Of a stretch of 21,341 nt of DNA, positions 1,799 through 21,079 are shown piece after piece. Numbering within the stretch: the stretch's first letter is position 1; each line of letters begins with the position of its first letter. Origin of the DNA: Hormoscilla sp. (GTDB lineage: Bacteria; Cyanobacteriota; Cyanobacteriia; Cyanobacteriales; Desertifilaceae); NCBI GenBank assembly GCA_051439505.1, contig JBFRWI010000194.1, positions 1 to 21,341 on the forward strand, read 5' to 3'. A program made the position numbers and the translations under genes. The notes beneath the pieces were generated by a model. That model did no database searches. It worked only from the letters and a program-made list of their open reading frames with translations, and was not told the DNA's origin.

Positions 1799-2842
1799 AT
1801 GCAGAAATCCGGGCAAAGCAAAAAACAGTTGACTATATATAACACGAGAGAATTACCAGTGGAAGTGCTCGTCCGGAAATACCGAGATGGGCTGGATGAA
1901 GACACCAATGAGTTGTATATACCAGACTATCAACGAGATATGAATTGGGACGAAAGTCGGCAGTCAAAGTTTATTGAATCTATTTTTATAGGATTACCTA
2001 CCCATATTGTTGTGGCCGATCTGCGACCAAAGCCAGAAGATGATTGGGAGGATTTCGGTCGGTTAGAAATTGTTGATGGAACTCAACGTATCCGAACTTT
2101 AGACATATTTCTCAATAACGAGCTACAGTTGTGTGGACTAGAAAAGCTCAAGAAACTTAACAACTTCAAATTCCGCGATTTGTCCCTAGCAAGACAACGA
2201 CGCTTTAACAGGGTCAGAATTCGCACGAGCGTGCTGACGGCGAAAGCTGATGAAGAAACGCGACGGGATATGTTTGAACGCATCAATGCAGGTAGCGTCG
2301 AACTATATGATATGGAGAAGCTTCTAGCTAGAGATACTGGACCGTTTATCCATCTGCTTGAAGAACTCGCCAAAACTCCCAAATTTATGCAACTATGTCC
2401 CAGATCGGAGGTACTTGTCCGCAAACGGGAACCTGAAGAATTTGTGTTACGTTTTTTTGCCTACTTAAATAACTATCAGAATTTTGACAGGCAGGTCAAT
2501 AAGTTTCTCCATGAATATATAGAAGCACGTAACCATGCTGGAATTGACCCAGATGTTATGGGCTGTGAATTTCACAAAATGTTAGACTTTGTTGACAAAT
2601 ACTTTCCCCATGGATTTAGCAAAACCAAAGGTAATGTGAGAACACCAAGAATTCGCTTCGAGGCAATTTCTGTAGGAGTTGCACTCGCTTTGAGAGAAAA
2701 GAGCGGTCTCGAACCAAAATCAATGGCCTGGCTTGACTCGCCAGAATTTAAGGCATATACTAACTCAGATGCCAGCAAATCCAGATCTAAAGTGATTCGG
2801 CGGATCGAATATGTTCGCGATCGACTTCTCAGTAAATCATGA
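1799..2842 (+). CDS. DUF262 (GmrS/ParB-like) domain protein; N-terminus possibly frameshifted
   Basis: Motifs IPDYQR...W, FIESI..GLP, IVDGTQR.RTL and FERINAG match the DUF262 QR/DGQQR/FxxxN signatures. Coupled to the next gene by ATGA overlap at 2839-2842. Confidence 0.85.
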   Translation: MQKSGQSKKQLTIYNTRELPVEVLVRKYRDGLDEDTNELYIPDYQRDMNWDESRQSKFIESIFIGLPTHIVVADLRPKPEDDWEDFGRLEIVDGTQRIRTLDIFLNNELQLCGLEKLKKLNNFKFRDLSLARQRRFNRVRIRTSVLTAKADEETRRDMFERINAGSVELYDMEKLLARDTGPFIHLLEELAKTPKFMQLCPRSEVLVRKREPEEFVLRFFAYLNNYQNFDRQVNKFLHEYIEARNHAGIDPDVMGCEFHKMLDFVDKYFPHGFSKTKGNVRTPRIRFEAISVGVALALREKSGLEPKSMAWLDSPEFKAYTNSDASKSRSKVIRRIEYVRDRLLSKS

Positions 2843-3537
2843 CTAGCACGTTATTTCAGGACTTCAACGAACGCTCGAAGGAAGTGAGCAAATATTTTCT
2901 GCTCTTGAAGAGTTTGGAGCAGGAGACTACTAAATTAAGTATGGAAGGTAAAGGGGGAAGCCAAAAAATACGAGCAATTGATTCTGAGTTAATCAATACC
3001 TTAAAATCCAGTGGTTTTCTGTTGCTCTATAATCTAGTATAATCGACAATGCGAAACGCGATCGGAGCAATATTTAACGAACTGCAAAGTCAAGGATTTG
3101 ACTACGACAAAATTAGACCGGAACTCAAAAAAGTTATCCTCAAAAACCTCAAGAAGCGAAACCAAAAAAAAATATTTTCAAGTATAACAGCTATTGCGGT
3201 AGATATTATTACTGCTGGATTTGAGAAAGAAGATCTTTTTTCGGGAAACGTCGATGCTAGAAAAATCAGATATCCGGCAACTGAATATGGATTTTCACAT
3301 CTGACTGATTATGCCAAAACAGGTCATGGATTGGATTTATTGATAATCAAGTCAAATAGGAATGATTTAGCCCATGGCTATAAATCTTTTGCCGAGGTAG
3401 GAAAAGAAAAAACTGCAGATGAGTTATTATAGATTAAGAAGAAGACAGTCAGCTATTTAAGGGAAATCATGCAAAATATTGAACAATATTTATCAAATAA
3501 AGAATACTTAGATTCATCGACTACAGGGACTCCTTAA
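2839..3537 (+). pseudogene. HEPN nuclease (MAE_28990/MAE_18760-like), interrupted by TAA 3040-3042 and TAG 3430-3432
   Basis: Track ORFs 2839..3042 and 3049..3432 plus the tail to TAA 3535-3537 are one frame: ...LLYNLV*STMRNAI...FSGNVDARKI...RNDLAHG...ADELL*IKKKTVSYLREIMQNIEQYL.... RNDLAH is the HEPN Rx4H motif. Confidence 0.85.
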
Positions 3538-6142: not shown

Positions 6143-6730
6143 TCACGAGTACCCCATCCAAAAAGCCAGGGGATTTATCCGGCATGGCACAAGCGGCCAG
6201 TAACGCAAGTAAGTTTCCATCTCTGGTGGTTCCTGAGGGTCGCCGAAGGGCTGCCACCGGGGCGGTTCCAATCCCAGTCCCAAACAGAGATGACAGATAA
6301 CGTCAAAAAAACGCCGATCGTGACCGGGCGAACCTAAATGAGCATGAGCATATTCATGGACAACTACGCTCAACCAGTCCGCCGGTGCTGTCCTACCCAC
6401 ATCGATGAGAATCTCTACAGGATTTCGCCAGATATTGCAACAACCGTCTATACCAAACTCTGGCGCTAAAGGGGTGGCCAGAATGCGGATCTGACGGCGC
6501 ACCTCCGCATGAAAGCAGCCGTGACAGGCTTCCAGACTGTCATGGAGTTGAGCGTTAATGGCGTCAATGTGATTGCCAACCCAGGTAATCATCTGTGGAT
6601 TATCCGGAATCGGAACCATCTTTGGGTCTAAGGCCAGTTGACGCACAGCCTGCAAATATTCATAGCCGCGTGCAAAGGGACTGACATCACCAGCCCCATA
6701 CCGAGTAATACTGTCTGGGTTCCCTGGCAT
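6143..6730 (-). CDS. Hypothetical HExxH zinc-metallopeptidase-like protein (SprT/YgjP-like motif); start uncertain
   Basis: VVVHEYAHAHLGSPGHDRRF (HExxH...H..xF). 5' end overlaps the cpcS 3' end. Confidence 0.65.
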   Translation of the reverse strand: MPGNPDSITRYGAGDVSPFARGYEYLQAVRQLALDPKMVPIPDNPQMITWVGNHIDAINAQLHDSLEACHGCFHAEVRRQIRILATPLAPEFGIDGCCNIWRNPVEILIDVGRTAPADWLSVVVHEYAHAHLGSPGHDRRFFDVICHLCLGLGLEPPRWQPFGDPQEPPEMETYLRYWPLVPCRINPLAFWMGYS

Positions 6731-7660: not shown

Positions 7661-8362
7661 CTATGGACTCTGCCGATCGCCGGTTGTGGGGGGACGGCCT
7701 ACCGCGCCCCCCTCGGTCTTGCTAGAGGCGATCGCATCGATCGGATCTGCTACTGGGAATTCTTGCCGCAACTGCAGATCGTACTTGTGTAGTCCGTTGA
7801 TGCTGCCACTGAAGCTACCGACGATCGTCTTGAGATCTGCAATCAGTTCCCCTTGGCAACTATGAACCTGCCGGTCGAGAACCAGGATTTGGCAGCCAAA
7901 TTGCCTACATAACCATTCGATCAAGTCAAACCCAAATCTAACTAGCCGGTCTTGGTTGGCAACCACAATACATGCGATCTCGCCTCTGATGACTCGTTCT
8001 AACATGGCCAGAAATCTAGGCCGGCTAAAATTGAGTCCGGAGCCAATTTCACAGATCGCTTCACAGTCTGGATACTCTGCCATGAGATCGGCAGCTTGTC
8101 TCCTCAACTGCTCCTGCTGGCTTTGGAGGGCAACTCTGGCATACAGAATGGTTGTAGAACTGGAATTTTGACACTCAGCTGTCGTTTGGCCAGGCTCGCC
8201 GATACCCGATCGTTGGAGATATTCTTCCAGGTCGTAACGTCTTTGTCCCGCCGCCGTGCGGATCGCCTTGATTTTTCCTTGCGCTTCCCATCTCGTCAGA
8301 GTTCTGGTATGAACTCCCAAAGCCGAGGCTGCAACCCGAGGCGTCACATAATGATTAGACAT
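7661..8362 (-). CDS. IS607 TnpA-like protein (MerR-type wHTH + serine-recombinase domain) with the catalytic Ser replaced by Ala; no tnpB
   Basis: N-terminal AASALGVHTRTLTRWEAQGKIKAIRTAAGQRRY; then YARVA in place of YARVS (GCC codon at 8129-8131), EIGSGLNF and DRLVRFGFD. Confidence 0.85.
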   Translation of the reverse strand: MSNHYVTPRVAASALGVHTRTLTRWEAQGKIKAIRTAAGQRRYDLEEYLQRSGIGEPGQTTAECQNSSSTTILYARVALQSQQEQLRRQAADLMAEYPDCEAICEIGSGLNFSRPRFLAMLERVIRGEIACIVVANQDRLVRFGFDLIEWLCRQFGCQILVLDRQVHSCQGELIADLKTIVGSFSGSINGLHKYDLQLRQEFPVADPIDAIASSKTEGGAVGRPPTTGDRQSP

Positions 8363-8655: not shown

Positions 8656-9189
<534 letters not shown>

Positions 9190-9235
9190 CCAAATCCTTT
9201 AACGAGTTAAAGCCGAACTTCTCGGTGCGCTTTGA

Positions 9236-9787
<552 letters not shown>

Positions 9788-9811
9788 TGACATTAAAGTA
9801 AAATTCGCTTG

Positions 9812-9898
9812 CTAATAGGATGTCATCCTATTAGTTCCTAGGGGCTCTTAGTCGTATTGCTTGCCTGTTGAGGGTTGAGTAGCGGCTAAGAGTCCCTA
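9812..9898 (+). terminator. Two tandem stem-loops after cpeA (mRNA 3' end, terminator or stabiliser)
   Basis: CTAATAGGATG-T-CATCCTATTAG (9812-9834), then TAGGGGCTCTTAGTCG (9839-9854) pairing with CGGCTAAGAGTCCCTA (9883-9898) using G-U pairs. Confidence 0.7.
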
Positions 9899-10008
9899 CT
9901 GTTGTGCTATGGTAAACCAAGTAGTTGTGCAAAATTAGTTTGAGATTTGATTGTTTAGTCAATAATGCTATAACCCTTGCTATGTGGTTATTTGAAGCTC
10001 TCTGCGGT

Positions 10009-10044
10009 CGAACTACGAACTACGAACTACGAACTACGAACTAC
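10009..10044. repeat. Heptamer tandem repeat (CGAACTA)x5, STRR-like
   Basis: Five perfect units ending about 11 nt before the cpeY ATG. Confidence 0.95.
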
Positions 10045-10055
10045 TTATTGGCGTT

Positions 10056-11345
10056 ATGGATAAACGGTTTTTCAATATCTTTAATTTGACGGAAGACCAG
10101 GCGATCGCCCTGTTGAAAACTCCGTTAGAGGAACTGGAAGATAAGTCGGACCGCTATGTGGCGGCATCCCATTTGATTAATTTTCCCACAGCGCGATCGA
10201 TCTCTGCTTTGATAGAAACGATACAAGACCCAGACCAGGAAATGTATCATCGCATTGCTAGACGTAAAGCGGTGGAAAGCTTGGGGCGTTTGCAAGCGGC
10301 AGTGGCATTGCCGGTGATTCGCGCTTGCTTGGCAGATGATGATTGCTATACGGTAGAAAATGCTGTCTGGGCAATTGGGGAAATTGGTACTGAAGATGAG
10401 GCTATTTTAGAAGAGATTGCCCAACTGTTAGAAAAACCGGGGCAGACTTACCGGGTGATTATTCAGGTACTGGCGAAATTAGATTATCAACCAGCCCTGG
10501 ATCGGATTAGGAAGTTTGTAGAGGATCCTTCTCAACCGATCGCCAGTGCGGCGATCGCGGCGGTCTGTCGGTTCACGGGGGATTACACTCAGATGTCCTC
10601 GGTGGTGCAGTTACTGCAACATCCTAATGTTAACGCCAGGCGCGGCTGCATTCAAGATTTGATCGATGCTAAATATTATCAGGCAATTCCTAAAATTGCT
10701 AGCTGTCCTGTTTCTCTAGTGTTTCGCCTGCGGGGCATTAGACTCTTGGCAGAAGCAGGGGTGCCAGCAGGTGATATTGCTTTTAAGGATATAGAACCAT
10801 CTCTGGATCGAGTGATTCGCGATCGCCCATCTGACCTAGAATTGGTACATGAATACGACGAAACCCCCACTCTAGAATTTTTAATTTCTGAACTATATCA
10901 CACGGATTTTGGGCGGTGTTATCTGGGTAGCAAAACTCTCCTGGAAGTTTATCCCGAACTTGCTCCTGAAGCGCTGATGGCGACTTTTGCAGAAAAAGCA
11001 CATAATGATTATGGTGCTCACTATCATGTAATGAAACTGTTGGGTTGGCTCAAATATGCCCCTGCTTACGATATGCTGGTGGAAGCTCTACAAAACCGCA
11101 GCCCTCAGTTTCAAAAGTCCCGGGCTGCAGCGGCGATCGCCCTCGGCAACTTGGGGGACGATCGGGCAATTCCACTGCTGTCCGATAGTCTGAAAACAGA
11201 AATTTTTGAGTTTAAATATGCTTGCTTGCTGGCCTTAGAACAGTTGGGAGGCAAGGACAAGATATCAATTGCCGCCGATGATGCAGATTGGTTGGTACGG
11301 GCGAAAGCAATAGTTATAAAGCATAACACCCTACCCAACCATTAA
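10056..11345 (+). CDS. cpeY: HEAT-repeat phycoerythrobilin lyase CpeY
   Basis: MDKRFFNIFNLTEDQAIALL...RYVAASHL...RIARRKAVESLGRL...TDFGRCY...DYGAHYH; 429 aa, downstream of cpeBA. Confidence 0.9.
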   Translation: MDKRFFNIFNLTEDQAIALLKTPLEELEDKSDRYVAASHLINFPTARSISALIETIQDPDQEMYHRIARRKAVESLGRLQAAVALPVIRACLADDDCYTVENAVWAIGEIGTEDEAILEEIAQLLEKPGQTYRVIIQVLAKLDYQPALDRIRKFVEDPSQPIASAAIAAVCRFTGDYTQMSSVVQLLQHPNVNARRGCIQDLIDAKYYQAIPKIASCPVSLVFRLRGIRLLAEAGVPAGDIAFKDIEPSLDRVIRDRPSDLELVHEYDETPTLEFLISELYHTDFGRCYLGSKTLLEVYPELAPEALMATFAEKAHNDYGAHYHVMKLLGWLKYAPAYDMLVEALQNRSPQFQKSRAAAAIALGNLGDDRAIPLLSDSLKTEIFEFKYACLLALEQLGGKDKISIAADDADWLVRAKAIVIKHNTLPNH

Positions 11346-12214
11346 GCATTATGATTCATTTGAGGGCAACCGAGGCTCTCGGCTGTATTATTGCGGGTAA
11401 AAGGATTCCAAGTGCCTAACTCTTGTCCTGCATGCCCGCAAAGCATAGCCCGATCGGACTCACTCAGTCCTTGAGCCAGGGTAAAATCAGCTCCAGCAAT
11501 ACTCTGTATATGTTCCAAACTAGCTCCGGTCAAGTCAGCAGCCCGCAGATCGGCAAACTGCAACTCGACACCATTTAATCGAGCAGAACGCAAGCAAGCC
11601 CCCGTCAAAAAAGCTTTCTGGAGGTTGGCCCCACTCAATGCCGCGCCCTCTAAATTAGCTCCGGTCAAATCAGCTCCGCTCAGGTAAGCTCCCCGCAGGT
11701 TAGCTCCCCGCAGATCTACTCCCCTCAGAAGCGCCGTGTTCAGAAAAGCCCCAGCTAGATTGGCTTTTGGCCCCACGGCTCCAGAACTTTTATAAACAAA
11801 TCCTTCTGGCCAAATTGTCTCGCGATCGTAGTAAGCTAGTTGTAGCTTGGCGAGTTCCAGATTAGCACCAGTCAGATCTGCCTGCTGCAATTGGGCCCGG
11901 TTCAAATAACTCTCTTGCAAGTTGGCCCCACTCAGGTTAGCTCCCCGCAGGTTGGCCCCTCTGAGATCGGCACCCTTGAGGTTCGCCTCAGATAGGTTGG
12001 CCCCACTCAGGTTAGCTCCAATTAGGTTAGCTTTGTGTAGATTCGCTTTGCTAAAATCTACACTGGATAAATCGATCCTCATCAGTTCCATCCCCTGGAA
12101 GTCAGCACCAGCAAGATTGGCTCCTGGTTTCAGGGCTGATATGATCTCGGTAGGATTTCCATTCGACCCGGTGCTATTTTTCGCGTAGCGATCGCTCTTT
12201 CCCATTGACTGCAT
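11342..12214 (-). CDS. Pentapeptide-repeat protein (start uncertain: ATG 12253, 12214 or 12205)
   Basis: Two long A(N/D)Lxx repeat blocks separated by TIWPEGF...GAVGP. Convergent 4-bp overlap with cpeY. Confidence 0.88.
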   Translation of the reverse strand: MQSMGKSDRYAKNSTGSNGNPTEIISALKPGANLAGADFQGMELMRIDLSSVDFSKANLHKANLIGANLSGANLSEANLKGADLRGANLRGANLSGANLQESYLNRAQLQQADLTGANLELAKLQLAYYDRETIWPEGFVYKSSGAVGPKANLAGAFLNTALLRGVDLRGANLRGAYLSGADLTGANLEGAALSGANLQKAFLTGACLRSARLNGVELQFADLRAADLTGASLEHIQSIAGADFTLAQGLSESDRAMLCGHAGQELGTWNPFTRNNTAESLGCPQMNHNA

Positions 12215-12321
12215 GCTATGAATTGCTATATTGATTAAATTATAGGTTAACATGCCTTCGCCTTCTGACGGACAGGCCGGACTTGTCCTACGAATTGCCC
12301 ACTGACAACTAACAACCAACT

Positions 12322-12900
12322 ATGCTGCTAACACCGCCAATGACCATGATGGATTTCTTTAAAAAAAGTGAAGGAATCTGGTTTTCCGATCGCACAGTCC
12401 ATCACTTTGACTCTCAGGCGGATGAGTCAGGGAAATCTAATCTGATTATTCAAGTGTTCGATCGGGATGACCCCAGAGTCAAGCAAATTTGCGCAGAGCA
12501 AAAGGTCGATCTAGCCAGAGCTGCTGGTGGTGCGAGTTTTGGCTGGCAGGACAACCTCGACTTATCCGAACCTAACCCCAATTATGCCGCAATTCTGGTT
12601 GACATTCCCGATCCTGACAATAGTCGAACTGGGTTTTTTCTGCGTAACCGTGGCTATGTAGAAGGAATTCCGGTTGTGGGTCGATACCATTTTGCCCCGG
12701 ATGGGATATTGACGATCGATACTGAATATGAAAGAAACCAAGGTCAGGAACGCTGCTGGTTTCTCTCCGATGACTTTCGGGTGCGCGTTAGTAGCGTCAG
12801 GATGATGAATGGAGTTAATCTGATAGCCTATTGCTCGGAACGCCGCTGCGTGGGGCGATCGGACTTAGAAGAGATGATTGCCTTCAATCGTACTAGATGA
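12322..12900 (+). CDS. cpeU: S/U-family lyase CpeU
   Basis: PPMTMMDFFKKSEGIWF..RTVHHFD...DESG.SNL, RNRGYVEGIPV, GQERCWF. Confidence 0.8.
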   Translation: MLLTPPMTMMDFFKKSEGIWFSDRTVHHFDSQADESGKSNLIIQVFDRDDPRVKQICAEQKVDLARAAGGASFGWQDNLDLSEPNPNYAAILVDIPDPDNSRTGFFLRNRGYVEGIPVVGRYHFAPDGILTIDTEYERNQGQERCWFLSDDFRVRVSSVRMMNGVNLIAYCSERRCVGRSDLEEMIAFNRTR

Positions 12901-12909
12901 CCACCGATC

Positions 12910-12957
12910 ACTGACAACTGACAACTGACAACTGACAACTGACAACTGACAACTGAC
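12910..12957. repeat. Heptamer tandem repeat (ACTGACA)x6 plus ACTGAC, STRR-like
   Basis: Perfect units ending 2 nt before the cpeZ ATG. A degenerate copy at 12301-12321 precedes cpeU. Confidence 0.95.
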
Positions 12958-12959
12958 CT

Positions 12960-13583
12960 ATGACCACAGAAGATTTGTATCAACAACTGAAACATAAGAA
13001 TCCGAGACTGCGCGAAAGAGCAATGCGCCAAATTGCAGACGAAAAAACTGCCAATACTATTGGGAAAATGATGGCAATTTTGTCTGATGAAGATGTGGTC
13101 TACCGGCGGGCCGCCGTGCAAGCTTTGGGTCTGATTGGTTTGGATGCTGTCCCTGCATTGTTAGAACAACTGACAGGCAGTGATAATGAAACAGTCAGGG
13201 CTAGCTGCGCTAAAGCACTGGCCGCGATCGCCCTGAATTTCCCCGAAGAGAACTTCCCCAAAGAAGCGCTTGCGGGTTTGCAAACAGCTCTCAAAGATCC
13301 CAACCCAGTAGTAAAAATCTCCGCAGTGGGCGCACTCGGCACAGTGGGACCACCCGCCTTGGATATTCTCGTCGATGCCATGACTATCGATGATATTGCT
13401 CTCCAAGTCGCGGTGATTAATGCCCTCGGATCCCTGGGAGACTCTAAAGCTGCTGACGTGCTATCCCCCCTTACCCAGGATGAAGCAGCTGACCCCTACA
13501 TTCGGGAGTCAGCTATCAGTGCTTTATCTCGCCTAGAGCAAGTTACCAACTTTAAATCCAAAACATCCGCTGCGACAGACTAA
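12960..13583 (+). CDS. cpeZ: HEAT-repeat bilin attachment chaperone CpeZ
   Basis: LYQQLKHKNPRLRERAM...EDVVYRRAAVQALG...VRASCAKALA...YIRESAISALSRL; 207 aa in a PE cluster. Confidence 0.85.
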   Translation: MTTEDLYQQLKHKNPRLRERAMRQIADEKTANTIGKMMAILSDEDVVYRRAAVQALGLIGLDAVPALLEQLTGSDNETVRASCAKALAAIALNFPEENFPKEALAGLQTALKDPNPVVKISAVGALGTVGPPALDILVDAMTIDDIALQVAVINALGSLGDSKAADVLSPLTQDEAADPYIRESAISALSRLEQVTNFKSKTSAATD

Positions 13584-15298
13584 AAATTGCGCTGACGCCA
13601 CTTATTTAAATAAGTTTCTCCTATTGCAGCAGTTGGCTGCAACTCGGCGACTTGTTGTTGTAAAGTGGCAATCAGCTTTGCCTGTTCTTCAGACTGCTGT
13701 TGCAAAGATGCGTAACTCATTAATGGTCCATTTCCTAGGGTCTGAGTTGGCCGCTCTTGCCAACCGTTAAGCTGTTGTTGCAGTTGCGCCACCACCTTTG
13801 CTTGCTTTTCCGACTCCTGCCGCAAAGATTCATATTCTGATAGTGGCACCCGATCGGAATATAGCCGCATCTGTTGTTGCAATGCGGCGATCGCCCGTTC
13901 TTTTTGTTCCGACTGTTGCCGCAAAGATTCATATTTTTCCAAGGGCACCCGTTCTTGCAGTTCCCGGATCTGTTCTTGTAACTGGGCCATCTGATTTGCT
14001 TGCGATCGGGACTCATTCTGTAACAGTTCGTACTTTTCTAAGGGCTCCCGAGTTTGACCAATTTTTTCTTCTAGTCGAGCGATCTGACTTGCCTGTTCTG
14101 CAACTTTTTGTCGTACCTGTTCATAGGTGTATAGCGGCACACGCTGTAGCAACTCAGAGACCTGTTTTTGCAACTCCGCTACTACCTTTGCTTGTGTTTC
14201 CGACTCTTGCTGGACTGATTCCAATTCTAACTGCACGGCCTTCCTATTCTCGGCGTCCATACTATGTTGCAACTCATGCAACTGTTGTTGTAAGGACGCT
14301 ACCACCTGCGCTTGTGCTTGGGCGTCCTGCTGCAATGACTCATATTCTGAACGCGGCACCCGAGATGACAACTCAGAGATCCGAGAATGCAACTCTTCTA
14401 TCTGACTTGCTTGCCCTTGGGCCTCCTGCTGCAATGTTTCGTATTCATTGCGCGGCACCCGAGATGACAACTCAGAGATCTCGGAGTGCAACTGTTCTAC
14501 CTGACTTGCTTGCGCTGCCAAGTCCTGCTGCAATGACTCATATTCATTGCGCGGCACCCGAGATGACAATTCCTCTATCTGAGAGTGCAACTGTTCTACC
14601 TGACTTGCTTGTGCTGCCGCATCCTGCTGCAATGTTTCATATTCCGATCGCGGCACCCGGGATGACCATTCGCCCAGCTTTGTTTCTAACTCCTCTATCT
14701 GTGTTGCTTGTGCTGCCGCATTCTGCTGCAATGTTTCATAACTTTCCAGCGGCACCGTCCCATCTTTTAGACTTGCGATCGCCTTTTCCCACTCCCCCTG
14801 CTGTCCTTGTAACTCCTCTATCTGAGTTGCTCGTGCTTCCGACTCTTGCCGCAATGATTCATATTTTTCTAATGGTACCGTCCCCTCGTCCTTCGTTGCT
14901 AGAGCTGCTTCCAACTCCTTTATCTGTTCTTGTAAATCTACAATCAACTGTGCTTGTGCTTGATTACTTTCTGACTGCACCTCTGATTCTGTCACATCGG
15001 CAACTGGACTGGACAATTGACTATCCACCACCTGAAACTCTATGCCCAGCTTTGCTATTTCTGCATCTGTTAGAGTTTTATTGTCAACCGACTCACTTAG
15101 CGCGATCGCCATTTTTGCTGAGTCACTTTCGATCGAGATACACCCTCTTGCGATCTGCTCTACCATTTCCGAGCGGGACAAATTTGCCTTTACGGCCATC
15201 TTATCCAGCAACTTTCTTCCTGTGGGCGTCATTGAAATCCCCAGCTTGACCTTTATCTCTGAATATAACGCCGGAACTCCACGACTTTTCTTTGCCAT
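13580..15298 (-). CDS. Hypothetical protein: N-terminal RHH/CopG-like DNA-binding domain, about 12 x 33-aa helical repeats, and a PE-linker-like C-terminal tail
   Basis: ATG 15298 with GAGGTGG RBS. KVKLGISMTPTGRKLLDKMAVKANLSRSEMVEQIAR reads as strand-helix-helix with an SRSE motif. Repeats have the pattern VP..EYE.LQQ....QA.QI..L; the protein ends LQPTAAIGETYLNKWRQRNF. Confidence 0.85.
   Translation of the reverse strand: MAKKSRGVPALYSEIKVKLGISMTPTGRKLLDKMAVKANLSRSEMVEQIARGCISIESDSAKMAIALSESVDNKTLTDAEIAKLGIEFQVVDSQLSSPVADVTESEVQSESNQAQAQLIVDLQEQIKELEAALATKDEGTVPLEKYESLRQESEARATQIEELQGQQGEWEKAIASLKDGTVPLESYETLQQNAAAQATQIEELETKLGEWSSRVPRSEYETLQQDAAAQASQVEQLHSQIEELSSRVPRNEYESLQQDLAAQASQVEQLHSEISELSSRVPRNEYETLQQEAQGQASQIEELHSRISELSSRVPRSEYESLQQDAQAQAQVVASLQQQLHELQHSMDAENRKAVQLELESVQQESETQAKVVAELQKQVSELLQRVPLYTYEQVRQKVAEQASQIARLEEKIGQTREPLEKYELLQNESRSQANQMAQLQEQIRELQERVPLEKYESLRQQSEQKERAIAALQQQMRLYSDRVPLSEYESLRQESEKQAKVVAQLQQQLNGWQERPTQTLGNGPLMSYASLQQQSEEQAKLIATLQQQVAELQPTAAIGETYLNKWRQRNF
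14325..14760. repeat. Intragenic 99-bp tandem repeat (most similar copies)
   Basis: GGCACC recurs at 14355, 14454, 14553, 14652 and 14751 (exact 99-bp period) with highly similar flanks. Confidence 0.9.
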
Positions 15299-15583
15299 TA
15301 ACACCACCTCTAATTCTGTTATTTTTTCAGTATACCCTATCTAAGTCCTTGCTACAAGTCCCTTTCGGCTTTTCCCCTAGAGGCTGTCTTCTACTCCCTA
15401 TACTTACCTTAATTATGACTACAGATACCTCGATCTTCCAAGCTACTCTTCTTGCGGGGATCTTTGAGGACTTGAGGTGCTGAATACAAGTTTATTTTTG
15501 CTCCAAGGGCGATCGCACTGCCTAGCATCTTCTGGGCTACTCCCCACTACCTATTAGTATCATTCCAAAATATATTTTTCCTA

Positions 15584-15610
15584 GCGGTCAGCGGAAAAAC
15601 TGCTGACCGC
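15584..15610 (-). terminator. Stem-loop downstream of the atypical linker gene
   Basis: GCGGTCAGC / GCTGACCGC 9-bp perfect stem. No U-tract on the minus strand, so it may be a stabiliser rather than an intrinsic terminator. Confidence 0.55.
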
Positions 15611-15627: not shown

Positions 15628-16653
15628 CTAGGAAAAAGTACGGGTGCGCCATTTATTCAATCGCGCCGATCCGATCGCGGCCAAGCGTTGCTGGTCTGCG
15701 AGTTTCAGGCGTAAAGAGGCGATCGCCTCTCGATCTGCTGCATACCGCTGTTGCAAAGCCTCATAACTTTCTGGCGCCGTTGGTTGTTGGCCATAGGTTA
15801 CACCCATCCCGCCATAGGAGTAAGGGCCTCCAGAACTCCATTTATTTAATTGGGCTGCTCCGATGGTAGCAGTCGGCTGTAATGCTGCCAACTGTGCTTG
15901 TAAAGTCCCAATCTCCGTTTCCAGTTCTTCACACTGACAACGCAAAGCATTCTCGGCTTGCTTGCGAGCCAGTTCTGCTTTGGAGATAATTTCTTCTGGC
16001 TGGATCTTCGGCTTGAGCACCTCAGCTAGCAAGGCATTGATATCCGTGACTGGGGCTTTGCCTGTAGGATTGTTGTAAATCAGGGCCCGATTCAGCCGAG
16101 GGAGATTTCCTGATAAACCCGCTTTATCGCTAGTCGAAATGCTGGGCAATAGTTGGAACATGTTGGTAAACCCAAGCAGTTTTTTGCCTGTCTGGGTTTT
16201 GTAGCCTCGGTAATAAGGCACGACGTTCTCCCCAAAGGCTTGCAGATACTCGTCGCTATCAATATAGGAGTCTATCTCCGCCTCAAAACCCCCTGCATCC
16301 AGCAGGCTACTGTGATAGAAAGTCTCCGAGTAGTCATCAGGTGTACGACCCAGCAGATGCTTGAAATTTAACTCGATCGCCCGGTAACGGGGGCAGCAGT
16401 CGAAGAACCGCGACCTGTACAAATCTGATTGTGCCACTTGACGGACAAATTCACGGACGCTGATTTCCCCAAGTTTTATCTGTGATTCCGGGACTGTGAG
16501 TCGTTCACTCTCCATCACGTGGGCATTCCCCAACACTTGCCGGTATACCGCCCGAATCACAATTTCCACTTCCGCTTCCGTTCGGCCTGGCCATAGCTCA
16601 ATTGGATCGGTTGCTTCAAATGATTTATACTGACTTTGCCAGGATTGAGCCAT
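15628..16653 (-). CDS. Phycoerythrin-associated rod linker with an atypical duplicated coiled-coil C-terminus (no CpcD domain)
   Basis: PBS linker domain IRAVYRQVLGN...ESERL...VREFVR...ELNFKHLLGR...FGENVVPYYRG, CpeC-like. The C-terminus has two L...AIG...LNKW modules. Confidence 0.85.
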   Translation of the reverse strand: MAQSWQSQYKSFEATDPIELWPGRTEAEVEIVIRAVYRQVLGNAHVMESERLTVPESQIKLGEISVREFVRQVAQSDLYRSRFFDCCPRYRAIELNFKHLLGRTPDDYSETFYHSSLLDAGGFEAEIDSYIDSDEYLQAFGENVVPYYRGYKTQTGKKLLGFTNMFQLLPSISTSDKAGLSGNLPRLNRALIYNNPTGKAPVTDINALLAEVLKPKIQPEEIISKAELARKQAENALRCQCEELETEIGTLQAQLAALQPTATIGAAQLNKWSSGGPYSYGGMGVTYGQQPTAPESYEALQQRYAADREAIASLRLKLADQQRLAAIGSARLNKWRTRTFS

Positions 16654-16714
16654 TCCTACCTCCCTTGAGTAGATTTGCTTATGTCTTTTGGCTAGCTATT
16701 TCCTTACCTTTCTG

Positions 16715-17020
16715 TTAACAACGTCGATCGAATCTTGTCTGCAAACCACCATATTTGAACCAGTATTGTTTGAGATCGTGATGGGGTGTATGTAAACTCG
16801 CTTTCGCTTGATATAGTATCACTTGTCTATGATCCCCTATCCAGATTTTGTCTATTGCTTCTACTGTAATCAAAGTTCCTCCTAAACTCTCCACGCATTC
16901 TGTAAATCTTTCTACCGTTGGATATTCCACCGTTTCCAATATAAAAAAGTTTCCCGAACTGATCAGATGTCTACTGCGGATCCACGCTTGCATCTTTTTT
17001 TCTGCTTGTGGCGGCAACAT
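16715..17020 (-). CDS. cpeR: Phycoerythrin regulator CpeR
   Basis: MLPP.A.KKM.AWIRSRHLI.SGNFF..ETV.Y...LHTPHH.LKQYW; lies after cpeT. Confidence 0.9.
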   Translation of the reverse strand: MLPPQAEKKMQAWIRSRHLISSGNFFILETVEYPTVERFTECVESLGGTLITVEAIDKIWIGDHRQVILYQAKASLHTPHHDLKQYWFKYGGLQTRFDRRC

Positions 17021-17043: not shown

Positions 17044-17676
17044 CTAATCTATTAAATTTACTTCACACTGCGGTACTTCTTCAGCAAAGCTTTGCCGTTT
17101 CTCAAATCTGAGGGGTCCCGCCTTTGACCCCCATACTTGCTCGTGGGTATTGACATCCATACCCTTATCTAAACTCACCCAAGTTTTTGCCGTCAATTCC
17201 ACATCACTCACCAGATATGTTTCGCAGCCATTTCTATTTATCAAGCAATTTTTGCCCTCCACAGCACCCCGAAACATTTCCCCTTCCCGCCAGAAAATCA
17301 TTCCACAATTTTCACGACGTTTAATCTCCTGTGGCGTAATCGTTTTGAGAATATCTAACTCCCTTGCTGCACCCACATATGGTACCGGATCTTTGAGACC
17401 GTAGTTTTCTATATAAATCAGATCTCGATGAGCTACTAGACGATGGACTCCCTGACGGTATGGTCTCCAGAGATCGTAGTCATAAACTTGCTCGGAATAC
17501 AATCCCAGTCCCCCAAAAAATTCATAGGGTAATGGTCGCCAAAATATATGAATATGTGCATAGGTTGTCGGGTTAGCATTTGCCTGTTTTTCGTTACTAA
17601 AATCCCCCGCCATCCAACATGCTAGCGTCATCATCTCCCGTGCTATACTCCTCTTTTTTATCAGTGCGATCGCCAT
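17044..17676 (-). CDS. cpeT: T-family phycobiliprotein lyase CpeT
   Basis: WMAGDFSN..QA..NP..YAHIH..WRPLP, YSEQVYDYDLWRPYRQGVH, DKG...QVWGS. Confidence 0.9.
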   Translation of the reverse strand: MAIALIKKRSIAREMMTLACWMAGDFSNEKQANANPTTYAHIHIFWRPLPYEFFGGLGLYSEQVYDYDLWRPYRQGVHRLVAHRDLIYIENYGLKDPVPYVGAARELDILKTITPQEIKRRENCGMIFWREGEMFRGAVEGKNCLINRNGCETYLVSDVELTAKTWVSLDKGMDVNTHEQVWGSKAGPLRFEKRQSFAEEVPQCEVNLID

Positions 17677-17703
17677 TTTATTTTTGGATCAGTTTTTCTT
17701 TAG

Positions 17704-18240
17704 TTAATTTCCCGACAAGGAGCGAATTTCTGAGGCAAAAGAAGCAGTTACCACGCCTTTTCCATCACTGGTTTTGATCGTAGAAACTCTAAATCTGAGA
17801 TTATCTGTCGCAAACCAGATTCTCTCCTCTGCTGCTGCCCGATCGTACTCTGTCAGCAGGACGAAGGTGCCATCCGAGGTAAAATAGTAATCTCCTACTG
17901 CCGCGATCGTTTCCGCATAGCCCTGCGATCGCAGTAATTTCCCCTGATTTATGTTCTCCCGATCGGGAATTGGCACCAGGACGCAGCTTCCTGTCATAGT
18001 TTCCTCTTCATCCCAATCCGATCGGCCCTCCCAACTCATGCTAAAGGGGCTAATTGCCGCTGCTGGATCTATGCCTGCGGACTTACACAGCTCAATTACA
18101 GAGTCATCCGATCCTGCCAATGATACTATATCAATAGTCGATCGCACTTCTTCAAAATGGCTAAATGCCAAATTGTGACCGCTGCGCTGCGATCGCCAAC
18201 GTCCGATGGAAAGTTTAACAAATTCCCTAATATCCATCAT
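17704..18240 (-). CDS. cpeS: Phycoerythrobilin lyase CpeS
   Basis: SIGRWRSQRSGHNLAFSHFEEV.S, GYAE, AAEERIWF, TASFASEIR; cpeS-cpeT-cpeR gene order. Confidence 0.9.
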   Translation of the reverse strand: MMDIREFVKLSIGRWRSQRSGHNLAFSHFEEVRSTIDIVSLAGSDDSVIELCKSAGIDPAAAISPFSMSWEGRSDWDEEETMTGSCVLVPIPDRENINQGKLLRSQGYAETIAAVGDYYFTSDGTFVLLTEYDRAAAEERIWFATDNLRFRVSTIKTSDGKGVVTASFASEIRSLSGN

Positions 18241-18680
18241 TTCTTGGATTTCTGTTTCCGCTTCAATTTCTTCAACTTGCTCGTCTTTTTCGTGTCCTTT
18301 TTCTTCGCCTCAACGGACTTGCGTTTGCTTCTGACAGGTTTGACCTCTGCGTGAGTCGCCAAAGTAGCATCTTTACTCGCCTTTGTTGATGTTTCCGATC
18401 CCACTGTTTCCGATCCCGCTGTTTCTGACGACCCTGGCGCTGACGATGCTGGTTCTGCTGAAGGTGGTGACAGTTCTAGGGAGGATGATATCATCCTGAC
18501 GCCCTTAATTTTGCCTCCTATCCGCCCAATCTCCTGCATTTTCTGAGACAGTCGGCGGTAAGGCACTTTCACCCTATAGTTACTGGCACGGATTATATCT
18601 TGACGACACAAACCCGTCACCTCTATCTCCACCATCCGACTGTCGTCGTCAGACGATTTGTAGCACCTAACATTTGCCAT
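18237..18680 (-). CDS. CpcD-like domain protein with Ser/Ala-rich linker and Lys-rich tail
   Basis: RMVEIEVTG...R.SNY.VKVPY.RLSQ.MQ.I.R.GGKI. ATGA overlap with cpeS. Confidence 0.75.
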   Translation of the reverse strand: MANVRCYKSSDDDSRMVEIEVTGLCRQDIIRASNYRVKVPYRRLSQKMQEIGRIGGKIKGVRMISSSLELSPPSAEPASSAPGSSETAGSETVGSETSTKASKDATLATHAEVKPVRSKRKSVEAKKKDTKKTSKLKKLKRKQKSKK

Positions 18681-18797
18681 TTCTCGATTTCCTCGATTAT
18701 CTGCTCACTAGCCTAACCTATTGCCACACCTACCAAAGGCCAATAATAGTCAAGCTAATGAGCTTCCCACCCGGCAATATTTTACCTTCTTAGAGAA

Positions 18798-19043
18798 TTA
18801 CTCCTCTGCTGCTGGACTGCTGGGAGATAAACTTGCTTCCTCCACACTGACATTTTTTACCTTGCCTCCCATACCCATTATGTTCTGCATTACCTGAGAC
18901 ATACTGCTGTATGGAACTTTAATTTTATAGTTGCTGGTTTTGCTTATTTCGTTACAGCACATCCCCGTCACTTCTATCACCACCGAGCGATTATCATAAC
19001 TGCTCACTCCCGTCATCCCAACTGTCTGAATCCTCAACATCAT
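18798..19043 (-). CDS. Small CpcD-like (rod-capping domain) linker protein
   Basis: RSVVIEVTG...SNYKIKVPYSSMSQVMQNI..MGGKVKNVS; AGAGG RBS. Confidence 0.8.
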   Translation of the reverse strand: MMLRIQTVGMTGVSSYDNRSVVIEVTGMCCNEISKTSNYKIKVPYSSMSQVMQNIMGMGGKVKNVSVEEASLSPSSPAAEE

Positions 19044-19114
19044 TCATACCTCTTGCATGCTCTTACTTTTGATTTTTTCCACTTCCTCCGGTGGACTTTT
19101 TCTTCAACAGCATT

Positions 19115-19143
19115 TCCTGGGGCTTGTTTGACTAGCCCCAGGA
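19115..19143 (-). terminator. Stem-loop downstream of cpeD
   Basis: TCCTGGGGCT / AGCCCCAGGA perfect 10-bp stem, about 20 nt after the cpeD stop. Confidence 0.6.
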
Positions 19144-19162
19144 TTTTCCCGTCTTGCCTGTT

Positions 19163-19912
19163 TTACACCACTTCTGTGATCCTGACAATTGTGCCGCTCG
19201 TGCGATTAATCCGCTGAATTTGCGGCGACATCCTGCTGCCGGGCACGATATATTCCGTCGTGCTGCGACGACGAGGACCGTCAAATTTCGCCCCCTTCAC
19301 CACAATTTTGAACATCTTTTCCGTAGCATCGGCATAAGCTGCCATCCGACCACTTGACCGCAACGGGATTTTTGTCGTACCATTAGTTGCCACCGCTTCT
19401 ACCAAGCGAGATGAGGTCGTAGCGCTATCAATTTCTGCCCAACCCCGAACCAAAGACTGAGTGCGGTTATAGCCAATTTGCTTTTGCCCCACCTGAGTGC
19501 TCGCACCATGATAGTACGGGACTATATTCTCACCATAGTTGCTGTAGTATTCTTCGCTATCGATATAGGAGTCAATTTCCGCATCGTAGCCCGAATTAAT
19601 GCATAGCTGGATATGCTCCGACAGTTCTGCTTGATCCAGGGGGGCCCGTCCCAGCAAATGCTTGAAGTTCAGCTCCACGAACCGGTAGGGGGCACAGCTT
19701 TCAAAATACCGGCTGCGATAGAAATCTGATTTTGCCACTGCCCGGACAAATTCCCGCACCGTCATGCTGCGATCGCACAATTGCGATTCTGCACTTACCA
19801 GTCGTTCGCTTTCCATCACGTGGGGGTTTCCCAACACCTGCCGGTAAACTGCCCTGATTATTGCCCCCACTTCCGACCCAGAGCTTGTGGGCCATAGTTC
19901 CATTTCTTCCAT
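19163..19912 (-). CDS. cpeD: Phycoerythrin-associated rod linker CpeD
   Basis: ELWP...GNPHVMESERLV.AESQLCDRS.TVREFVR...CAPYRFVELNF...KFD.PRR.STTEYIVP...PQIQRINRTSG; 249 aa. Confidence 0.9.
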   Translation of the reverse strand: MEEMELWPTSSGSEVGAIIRAVYRQVLGNPHVMESERLVSAESQLCDRSMTVREFVRAVAKSDFYRSRYFESCAPYRFVELNFKHLLGRAPLDQAELSEHIQLCINSGYDAEIDSYIDSEEYYSNYGENIVPYYHGASTQVGQKQIGYNRTQSLVRGWAEIDSATTSSRLVEAVATNGTTKIPLRSSGRMAAYADATEKMFKIVVKGAKFDGPRRRSTTEYIVPGSRMSPQIQRINRTSGTIVRITEVV

Positions 19913-19960
19913 TCTTAAATTCCTTCTTTAAACCACTTTTGCCTGAGTTGGTCGATCAAT

Positions 19961-19982
19961 GGTGGGCGGTGCCCACCCTACG
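19961..19982. repeat. REP-like small dispersed repeat GGTGGGC-GGT-GCCCACC-CTACG
   Basis: 7-bp palindrome plus CTAC tail in the cpeC-cpeD spacer. A degenerate copy lies at 21155-21180. Confidence 0.7.
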
Positions 19983-20005
19983 AGTTATTTTTTTCGCTCG
20001 GGATC

Positions 20006-20878
20006 CTAGTTGACAGCGGTGATACTGGCAATCTTGCCGCCCTGTTGGTGAATCCGCTGGTACTCTTTCGACAGTTGATCGAAGGGCACCAGATACACCT
20101 TGTTACTGCGCCGGAATTTCGAGACGCGATTGACTGCCCCTGGCGAGCTATAGGCAGTGACTTCTACGCGGTATACCTTGCCTTCGGAAGTTGCTCCAGC
20201 TCCATGTCGAGTCCGCGCCCCCAGAGTTGGATCTTGGAAAGACCAACCATCCGATGCTCCCGAAGGCGGAATCACAGCCGTGGGTATGCCTTGAATCACG
20301 TACTTATTCAACCGTGGTTCATTTCCTGCCAAATTCCCTTTCAGGTCGCTGCTGGAAGCACCCCGCAAGAGTTGGAACATATGGGTAAACCCAACCATAT
20401 TCTTGCCAGTTTGGGTTTTGTAGCCCCGATAATACGGTACGATGTTTTCCCCAAACGCATCCTGATACTCATCGCTATCCAGATAGGAATCAATGTCCGC
20501 CTCAAAACCCGCTTCATCCAAGATCGCGCTGTGTGCTTTCATCTCTTCGTAGCTATTGGGGGCCCGACCGAGAATATGCTTGTAGTTCAACTCCGTTGCC
20601 CGATAGCGGGGGCAGCTGTCGAAAAACCGGGAACGGTACAGATCCGATTTCGCTACCCAACGGACGAACTCCCGCACGCTGATTTCCCCCAGTTTCAGTT
20701 GGGACTCTTCCACCGTCAGCCGTTCGCTGTCCATCACGTAGGCATTTCCCAACAGCTGCCGGTACACGGCGCGAATCACCGTTTCCACTTCTTCCTCAGA
20801 GCGCCCCGGGTATAGCTCTACTGGTTCTGTGTCCTCAAACAGGGCCACTCCTAATTCCGATGCCGGTCCAAATACCAT
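20006..20878 (-). CDS. cpeC: Phycoerythrin-associated rod linker CpeC
   Basis: ATG 20878 with AGGAGAG RBS: MVFGPASELGV.LF...PGRS.EE...GASSS.LKG...GARTR.G...KVYRVEVT...FRRSNKVYLVP...YQRIHQQGGKIASIT. Confidence 0.93.
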   Translation of the reverse strand: MVFGPASELGVALFEDTEPVELYPGRSEEEVETVIRAVYRQLLGNAYVMDSERLTVEESQLKLGEISVREFVRWVAKSDLYRSRFFDSCPRYRATELNYKHILGRAPNSYEEMKAHSAILDEAGFEADIDSYLDSDEYQDAFGENIVPYYRGYKTQTGKNMVGFTHMFQLLRGASSSDLKGNLAGNEPRLNKYVIQGIPTAVIPPSGASDGWSFQDPTLGARTRHGAGATSEGKVYRVEVTAYSSPGAVNRVSKFRRSNKVYLVPFDQLSKEYQRIHQQGGKIASITAVN

Positions 20879-21079
20879 ACTCTCTCCTGGGTAGCAACTA
20901 ATTGACTTTTCCTGAGAATGGGGGCCGAGTAACGTTAACAAACTTAACGATTCTCCCTCTCCACCAATTTACCATCCTGTTCTCTGGTATACAGAGCTAA
21001 ATCTCTTCAGCCTTTATACCCCTGTCTTCCCTTTATACACCCCTGCGACCACTTTGATTATTAAGATTTATGAATTTTA

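Follow-up and report, generated by a model that had tools for sequence, protein, structure and literature searches.

Several described systems share parts of the layout of the protein considered here, a ribbon-helix-helix (RHH) protein with a long repeat stalk and a conserved terminal module (also called the tail below) that is encoded on a 21,341-nucleotide contig of Hormoscilla sp. (JBFRWI010000194.1). The whole contig was analyzed, is referred to as the window, and carries a phycoerythrin gene cluster. RHH proteins of the CopG/MetJ/Arc group (PF01402; PDB 1b01) have the same head fold with the same strand and turn residues, but CopG is a protein of 45 amino acids (aa), whereas the RHH head here bears 100-900 residues of repeat stalk that end in the module, a candidate membrane foot, or in a transmembrane helix. 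FciC, from the chromatic-acclimation islands of marine Synechococcus, is an RHH protein of 55-67 aa that is encoded among phycoerythrin lyase and regulator genes and has been proposed to regulate them (PMC3877281). As described there, FciC lacks a stalk or tail, and it is likened to the present protein by description, not by sequence.

The layout of the whole protein recalls that of bacterial DNA-membrane anchors. RocS of Streptococcus consists of an N-terminal DNA-binding domain, a coiled coil, and a C-terminal anchor (PMC13042908), and RicO of Staphylococcus has the same layout (bioRxiv 10.64898/2026.03.06.710092). Both would share with the RHH protein a DNA-binding head, a central coiled coil, and a C-terminal membrane end. 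As described there, however, their heads are of the helix-turn-helix (MerR/MarR) type instead of RHH, they use an amphipathic membrane helix whereas the tail here is not amphipathic by moment (0/135) and is replaced by a transmembrane helix in one family, and they act in origin segregation whereas the protein here has a patchy distribution and an antenna-gene context. We regard the likeness as an analogy and, in view of the differing head and helix, do not file the RHH protein with them. PEND and MFP1 have been proposed to anchor plastid nucleoids to envelope or thylakoid membranes, and most plastid nucleoid anchors are stated to be unique to land plants (PMC4154389); these are plant bZIP or filament-like proteins, likened to the present one by layout only. 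Our literature search found no cyanobacterial counterpart of them.

The gene adjacent to the RHH gene encodes a phycobilisome linker with the same tail. CpcL and the red algal linkers LRC2/LRC3 likewise combine PF00427 with a C-terminal attachment part instead of CpcD. The mark of CpcL is a C-terminal hydrophobic helix (PMC9415938), and its PF00427 domain is of the CpcG/CpcL group, whereas the tail linker has two hydrophilic modules and a CpeC-group domain; LRC2/LRC3 have a PF00427 plus coiled-coil layout (PMC12837069 and PMC6811547). The CpeC/CpeE rod linkers consist of PF00427 followed by PF01383, a domain the tail linker lacks. No description of an RHH-stalk-tail protein or of the module was found in the literature searched (titles and abstract openings, so that an earlier mention is possible), in line with the statement of an earlier reading made from the sequence alone (the sequence-only reading) that it knew of no described system of this kind. 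The RHH-stalk-module proteins form a real and apparently undescribed family. The features of the two genes, and of the cpeR-like gene that precedes them, are as follows.

13580..15298, minus strand: RHH-stalk-tail gene, 572 aa from the ATG
15254..15298, minus strand: basic N-terminal arm, residues 1-15
15140..15253, minus strand: CopG-type RHH domain, residues 16-53
13730..14878, minus strand: stalk, residues 141-523, 11 acidic Gln/Glu-rich helical repeats of ~33 aa
13583..13729, minus strand: terminal module, residues 524-572, a twelfth repeat running into A.IGE..LN[KR]WR.R.F
15628..16653, minus strand: tail-bearing phycobilisome linker, 341 aa, one PF00427 domain and two module copies
16207..16581, minus strand: PF00427 linker domain, residues 25-149
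15838..15981, minus strand: linker module copy 1, predicted helix 225-272
15634..15765, minus strand: linker module copy 2, predicted helix 297-340, ending in LNKWRTRTFS
16715..17020, minus strand: cpeR-like gene, 101 aa, no Pfam match, 3' of cpeS-cpeT

In one family, f11 (named relatives Pleurocapsa, Waterburya, and Xenococcaceae), two tail-negative genomes were found to retain the RHH head; the head is present in 25 of the 26 f11 genomes. Nineteen regions were fetched around long open reading frames (ORFs), leaving out short stand-alone RHH hits, and these contained 23 RHH ORFs, four of them cut by gaps or contig ends. All 19 complete RHH proteins end in a hydrophobic 19-mer (Kyte-Doolittle mean 1.98-2.98) that is preceded by basic and aromatic residues, and the tail is found in none; the window protein contains no hydrophobic segment (maximum 19-residue mean 0.8). 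Six of the 19 regions have cpeR upstream of the RHH gene, three of these with a double-tail linker between the two, and here the neighboring linker keeps its tails while the RHH protein has a transmembrane helix. Among 12 named f11 relatives, some of which may duplicate counted genomes and which were kept apart in the counts, cpeR is upstream in 11 and the hydrophobic end is present in 10, the two others being truncated in one case and cut by a contig end in the other; three have an intact tail linker and two have short linker remnants.

The helix preceding the transmembrane segment aligns in register with module residues 2-36 and stops at the start of the motif (hhalign, 82.6%, E 1e-5). In a quick tree of 69 heads, 20 helix-ended proteins fall among the tail-ended ones. 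With cpeR upstream, the same gene order, and heads that fall among tail-bearing heads, the f11 RHH genes can be taken as positional counterparts of the gene in the window. The transmembrane end is probably the derived state, since many families have the tail and a single one has the helix. As separate observations on these genes, a second gene (L121:4671-6062 and L128:3027-4286) lies directly behind the RHH-stalk-transmembrane gene, encoding a basic N-terminus, stalk, and tail without RHH, and L115, L117, L118, and L119 hold two tandem RHH-stalk genes.

The N-terminus had been read as an RHH domain, and the comparisons made here bear this out. The first 55 residues carry a net charge of +7, and the strand KVKLGISM aligns with the CopG strand. 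The whole window protein matches Pfam RHH_1 with E 0.0016 and 18.8 bits (gathering score, 20.5 bits), four relatives score 26-29 bits, and 15 of 19 homologous N-termini match at E<=0.05. The best PDB match of the profile of these 19 N-termini was CopG (1b01), at E 2e-6. The AlphaFold model of the head has helices at 25-37 and 42-51, and when it was searched with Foldseek, CopG ranked first (E 0.43) and the top rows were RHH proteins, all with weak E-values. Relatives are labeled "CopG family transcriptional regulator" in databases. The head is thus of the RHH fold. Conserved positions among the 19 include K18 (15/19), S22 (16/19), G39 (16/19), and S43 (19/19); we presume the K18/S22 strand and the G-x-S turn to be polar DNA-reading positions. 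An in-frame GTG at 15307 would allow three additional N-terminal residues. A second, truncated copy of the RHH gene, with unrelated sequence at its end, was noticed in genome G212 near a cpeT/cpcT-like gene (L078:4368-5030).

The stalk, predicted by the sequence-only reading to hold about 12 helical repeats, does so. The repeats begin with VP..[EK]YE.L, and a pattern search from residue 141 returned 11 segments, one of which, of 73 aa, holds two units and so brings the total to 12 units of ~33 aa. At the DNA level, TRF reported a 99-bp array of 4.4 copies at 14310-14740. Matches of the stalk to Pfam-type profiles were to coiled-coil families only. Its length varies widely: open frames within the genus have 561-963 codons, RHH or short tail proteins in another family are about 140-220 aa, and relatives as a whole range from about 140 to 950 aa. 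A search with the whole protein retrieved only two homologues because the stalk diverges.

The tail of the RHH protein and those of the adjacent linker had been described as shared, and they prove to be homologous. The last repeat and the two linker motifs quoted in that description are all present, and in pairwise comparison the last 50 aa of the RHH protein match both linker copies (47% over 45 aa, E 1e-10; 57% over 37 aa, E 2e-10). Within the whole source genome, the motif occurs only in the RHH ORF and the adjacent linker ORF. The consensus A.IGE..LN[KR]WR.R.F is highly conserved, only 2-13 residues separate its tryptophan from the C-terminus in 149 of the 152 proteins examined, and the terminal stretch is basic (mean charge +2.9). 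In its first half the module is similar to the stalk repeats, and the heptad register, read from the alignment, continues through the motif. PDB sequence searches with tail profiles returned only generic coiled coils, which does not imply a new fold; 31 tails had no NCBIfam match, Pfam likewise has no entry specific to the module, and the ESM Atlas gave no informative match (tail, 0.79; a short member, 0.90, "hypothetical").

The linker of the window has a PF00427 domain that groups with CpeC, apart from CpcG/CpcL, and a Pfam scan detected no CpcD domain (PF01383). Linkers of the same genus have two PF00427 domains, and the window copy is the counterpart of the second. Both module helices are confidently predicted by AlphaFold (predicted local distance difference test, pLDDT, about 95); a fold search with residues 220-341 gave generic helix pairs only, and 22 linker ends had only weak generic coiled-coil Pfam matches. 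The internal first copy keeps the A.IG core, and relatives of the tail linker have hydrophilic C-termini. The source genome has a separate CpcL-type gene on another contig. In another order, that of genome G308, the tail profile matches 12 of 58 genomes, and in 8 of 8 loci the tail linker stands directly before a CpcG/L-type gene with a hydrophobic C-terminus, accompanied in five of the eight by genes for a GAF-PAS histidine kinase and an OmpR-type regulator; such a cpcL arrangement is given as typical of CcaS-controlled operons (PMC9415938). The linkers and the HMA_2 scaffolds mostly carry two module copies and the RHH proteins one. With two copies on monomeric scaffolds and one on dimer-forming RHH proteins, the tails would appear to work in pairs. 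The tail linkers constitute an unrecognized class of phycobilisome linker that has so far only generic annotation. Members with three or four PF00427 domains and a double tail also exist (P0055, P0078, P0083, P0099, P0118); CpcN and Glr1262/Glr2806, which are similar in layout to such multi-domain linkers, gave no match to the tail. The searches gave no support for homology of the module to the coiled coil of LRC2/LRC3: whole-linker alignments extend beyond PF00427, but the C-terminal profile alone misses LRC2/LRC3.

The module was then surveyed in 401 sampled genomes of the phylum, with 17 candidates scored per genome, and its profile matched 61. Among 1.84 billion representatives, the profile of 31 tails retrieved 243 proteins at E<=0.001. 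Of the 150 matches listed in detail, 38 have an RHH head and many of the remainder are fragments; Pfam-scanned representatives include PF00427 proteins (28/149, 11 of them with two to four copies) and HMA_2 proteins (6/149), and seven representatives have Trp-rich N-termini. The module was not found, or is sparse, in some families (f25, 0/29 genomes; f4, 0/6; f6, 9/45), and 10 of the 29 f25 genomes carry cpeA. cpeA was matched in 53 of the 401 genomes (E<=1e-62). Apart from the window genome, 28 of 60 tail-positive genomes have cpeA and 32 lack it. These genome counts, and the counts by genus below, are descriptions and not tests, because related genomes are not independent. The earlier reading had treated the tail as a phycoerythrin element, and absence of cpeA from so many module genomes, an observation named beforehand as contrary to that view, removes this specificity. 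By tail type, assigned from fetched loci or, for some genomes, from genus and ORF length, cpeA is present in 19 of 43 single-tail genomes (RHH or fragments), 9 of 11 with linkers, none of four with HMA_2, and neither of two others. One tail-positive genome in a single contig has, by family search, only one rod-subunit pair besides the core genes, the subunit names being taken from gene arrangement.

The link to phycobilisome gene clusters is nonetheless real. In 8 of 19 genera read, the RHH-type or short tail gene lies beside antenna or bilin genes, and in 11 it lies elsewhere. In phycocyanin-only genomes the tail gene is often found between CpeS-family lyase genes beside cpcBACDEF and cpcG, and in a Microcoleus-like genus the RHH-tail gene follows pebAB or remnants of pebAB. 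The family is wider than the first reading supposed and is not tied to phycoerythrin. A neighboring CpeS-family gene was tried as an obligate partner and rejected (17/40 tail-positive versus 8/40 tail-negative genomes). Further observations on the family were made in passing. In L060, L064, L065, L074, L086, and L087, pebAB is broken or a remnant beside an intact RHH-tail gene, and some of these genomes still carry cpeA. L043 and L051 (Microcystis and Pannus by database names) have HMA_2 fused to two tail copies among unrelated neighbors. A plasmid collection yielded one match, L229:5251-6105 on plasmid pP742401 of Gloeothece citriformis PCC 7424, encoding a 284-aa protein with a Trp-rich N-terminus and a tail. 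Contigs of relatives in two metatranscriptome assemblies span the RHH-tail gene, although contigs are no proof of transcription. By database names, module proteins occur in the culturable genera Picosynechococcus, Cyanobacterium, Limnospira, and Planktothrix.

We propose, tentatively and as the best of the readings considered, that the module is a foot for the thylakoid surface and that the RHH protein is a DNA-membrane tether or a tethered regulator. The protein would be a parallel dimer whose two RHH heads form one DNA-binding unit, as expected from the RHH family. Its coiled-coil stalk, judged by composition and by the lengths of relatives, would be a spacer tolerant of length, and the module would secure the distal end of the stalk to the surface of a membrane. 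The thylakoid is the likeliest such membrane, and attachment would use either a membrane-bound receptor or the basic-aromatic end of the module itself. Chromosomal DNA, or the regulator itself, would thereby be held at the membrane. On the monomeric PF00427 linkers, the paired copies of this foot would fasten rods of phycoerythrin or phycocyanin to the thylakoid, as a counterpart of the hydrophobic tail of CpcL. The adjacent genes would then have the module and an old gene order in common, but a binding interface between their products need not exist.

That the tail places the end of the stalk at a membrane surface is the simplest reading of the tail-to-helix swap, and a membrane foot also accords with the motif tryptophan near the extreme C-terminus and the basic end. 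For the linkers, it accords with the absence of CpcD and with the position before a CpcG/L-type gene with a hydrophobic C-terminus. The conserved CopG strand positions and turn, and the RicO/RocS layout of DNA-binding domain, coiled coil, and C-terminal membrane anchor, argue for the DNA-membrane tether. As the tail lacks an amphipathic moment, recognition of a protein located at the membrane is no less likely than lipid binding, and the protein recognized could be a phycobiliprotein. In its most far-reaching form, the protein would be a cyanobacterial nucleoid-to-thylakoid tether, with an RHH dimer on the DNA, a ruler-like coiled coil, and a docking module that also anchors a linker class with one to four linker domains; the DNA gripped would perhaps be the antenna operons beside the RHH gene. 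This form is possible, if somewhat unlikely.

Several points weigh against the membrane foot and tether. The hhalign match may reflect the generic stalk repeat only, and the head tree, of 86 columns, is weakly supported. The tail does not form a classic amphipathic helix (0/135 tails exceed shuffles; mean z -0.62), and the strictness with which its sequence is conserved is more suggestive of protein recognition than of lipid binding. Hydrophobic or Trp-rich N-termini are already present in some tail proteins (seven Trp-rich; P0112), which would then have to be membrane-to-membrane linkers. The patchy distribution means that the module is not a core segregation factor. Gibbs sampling of 17 upstream regions found no operator motif common to the RHH genes and clearly above shuffles (12 nt, 10.9 versus 9.1-9.7; 18 nt, 12.0 versus 11.3-11.5), and some of the sites fall within neighboring coding sequence. 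Separately, in the Microcoleus-like genus and one sister genus (L058, L060, L063, L065, L068-L070), the sequence just 5' of the RHH start contains a conserved inverted repeat, CTACAC...GTGTAG, which the window lacks. It overlaps a second inverted repeat, which surrounds the ribosome-binding site and extends to the start codon; these overlapping repeats are a possible operator or translational switch.

The main rival holds that the module docks on a phycobiliprotein present in all strains, the allophycocyanin core or phycocyanin. On this view the linker would join a rod either to the core or to an adjacent rod, and the RHH protein would connect DNA with the antenna or act as a sensor of unbound phycobiliprotein; the transmembrane version would have arisen later, as a more direct route to the same surface of the membrane. 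The high conservation of the motif fits such docking, as do the 28 PF00427 linkers among the 149 representatives (11 with two to four domains), and the proteins combining a membrane-type N-terminus with a tail would find a use as antenna anchors. The red algal LRC2/LRC3 provide a precedent in joining PF00427 with a coiled-coil motif (PMC12837069). Yet no phycobilisome chain in the PDB matches the module, and a fold search with the linker model returned only generic helix pairs for residues 220-341. Of the 19 genera examined, 8 have the tail gene in the company of cpc, cpe, peb, or lyase genes, but the other 11 have it away from antenna genes. Moreover, the tail linker adjoins the gene for CpcL, whose rods need no core for membrane attachment, and a direct swap of a phycobiliprotein dock for a transmembrane helix is less parsimonious. 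We consider this rival unlikely, although serious.

It is quite unlikely that the module only caps and registers the coiled coil and drives dimer or filament assembly, with its small residues at core positions. The RHH protein would then serve the nucleoid structurally or act as a scaffold, and its gene would owe its antenna-gene neighborhood to inherited linkage, as the unrelated neighbors at many loci might indicate. The continuous heptad register, the resemblance of the stalk repeats to the first half of the module, and the linker copies, which are confident helices (pLDDT about 95) with helix pairs as their best fold matches, are all as a cap would predict. Such a cap leaves unexplained the conserved exposed residues, the basic-aromatic end, the extreme C-terminal position, the transmembrane replacement, and the fusion to monomeric linkers.

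A terminal tag read by a protease adaptor or chaperone, controlling turnover or assembly of the regulator and linkers, is highly improbable. The module is C-terminal throughout and portable across unrelated N-termini, and genes for NblB-like HEAT-repeat proteins and bilin lyases are frequent neighbors, but the internal first linker copy also keeps the A.IG core, the transmembrane replacement fits location better than turnover, and the neighboring CpeS-family gene is distributed otherwise (17/40 and 8/40, as above).

The sequence-only reading had seen in the shared module a means for the regulator to pair with its neighboring linker. All four same-genus genomes retain the order cpeR, tail linker, RHH gene, and the window order is also present in two Hormoscilla loci and in Symploca sp. 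SIO3C6; the cpeR-like gene is the usual upstream neighbor of tail-bearing and RHH genes in phycoerythrin clusters. However, in the survey with 17 candidates scored per genome, 59 of 60 other genomes showed one tail-bearing ORF only, and a deeper search found both tail types, on separate contigs, in two of seven sister-genus genomes. The RHH tail of the window is 57% and 43% identical to the neighbor's copies versus 54-59% to tails of other genomes, and recent copying of the tail from the adjacent linker is unsupported. The RHH gene persists where the linker has decayed or been lost. The linker-RHH pair is thus old but not obligate, and a dedicated regulator-linker pair is unlikely as a general function. 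Least probable of all is a regulator specific to phycoerythrin that, by pairing with its linker neighbor along a common coiled coil, reports rod assembly to transcription: the conserved gene order in the four same-genus genomes, Symploca, and f11 (in its transmembrane version) and cpeA in 9 of 11 linker-type genomes would suit it, but 24 of 43 single-tail genomes lack cpeA, the two tail types rarely co-occur in the 401-genome survey, neighboring tails have no special similarity, the f11 RHH protein has no tail to pair even beside a tailed linker, and the linker gene can decay while the RHH gene stays.

The remaining genes of the phycoerythrin cluster are arranged in two converging blocks, in which we assign the names cpeR and cpeZ presumptively, largely by position.

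17044..20941, minus strand: upstream linker/lyase operon
20006-20941, minus strand: cpeC-like linker
19163-19912, minus strand: cpeD-like linker
18798-19043 and 18237-18680, minus strand: two CpcD-domain ORFs
17704-18240, minus strand: cpeS
17044-17676, minus strand: cpeT
15584..15610, minus strand: GC-rich stem-loop just 3' of the linker stop, z -2.2, without a U-run
8656..13583, plus strand: converging phycoerythrin block
8656-9787, plus strand: phycoerythrin beta and alpha subunit genes
10056-11345, plus strand: cpeY
12322-12900, plus strand: CpeS-family lyase
12960-13583, plus strand: HEAT-repeat cpeZ-like gene, whose stop overlaps the RHH gene stop

The linker and RHH genes are co-oriented, as had been stated, but their adjacency needs correction, since they lie 330 bp apart with the stem-loop, a possible transcript end or stabilizer, between them. 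A single common transcript is therefore without support. A promoter scan performed at chance level (6 found versus 3.8 expected). The described operon order is cpeCDESTR (PMC13079394). Compared to two same-genus genomes, the operon is reduced here (15628-16714 and 18237-19162): the tail linker has one PF00427 domain where those genomes have two, and two further full-length linker genes are missing from the cpeD-cpeS interval, leaving only the CpcD-domain ORFs. The ORF at 18237-18680 encodes 147 aa comprising a CpcD domain, an Ala/Ser-rich spacer, and a very Lys-rich end, and similar genes precede cpeS in relatives (L053, L216, L219, L221).

Elsewhere in the window, 6143-6730 (minus strand) encodes a 195-aa protein with an HExxH motif and no Pfam match. 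Several families (L032, L033, L054, L056) retain its gene in a position flanked by a CpeS-family lyase gene and cpcG, and by its sequence the protein is possibly a metalloprotease tied to antenna assembly. An IS607-family resolvase-like gene (7661-8362, minus strand) lies between a lyase gene and cpeB; it falls below the full-length context of its NCBIfam name and has no partner nuclease gene alongside. A protein with a GmrSD N-terminal domain followed by short ORFs (1799-3432, plus strand) may mark a defense locus. Tandem arrays of 7 bp lie between genes at 10009-10044 and 12910-12957, and a perfect 21-bp array occupies the contig end (21218-21341).

Newly seen here are the tail-to-transmembrane-helix swap in f11 and the module-bearing linker directly before cpcL in another order. 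The family, as read here, unites a known layout, that of DNA head, coiled-coil spacer, and membrane foot, with an unrecognized class of phycobilisome linker, which the module marks behind cpeR or before cpcL in photoreceptor-linked clusters. Translation of thylakoid proteins is reported to take place on the side of the membrane adjacent to the nucleoid (PMC10601611). If the tether is real, it would keep antenna genes at the face of the membrane on which their products are put together or, alternatively, would station their regulator there in accordance with antenna load. Members of the family occur in culturable genera, and the natural anchor swap lends itself to a simple test. The family is a concrete candidate for a physical link between chromosome and thylakoid in cyanobacteria, in which DNA is probably tied to the photosynthetic membrane by an RHH-stalk protein.

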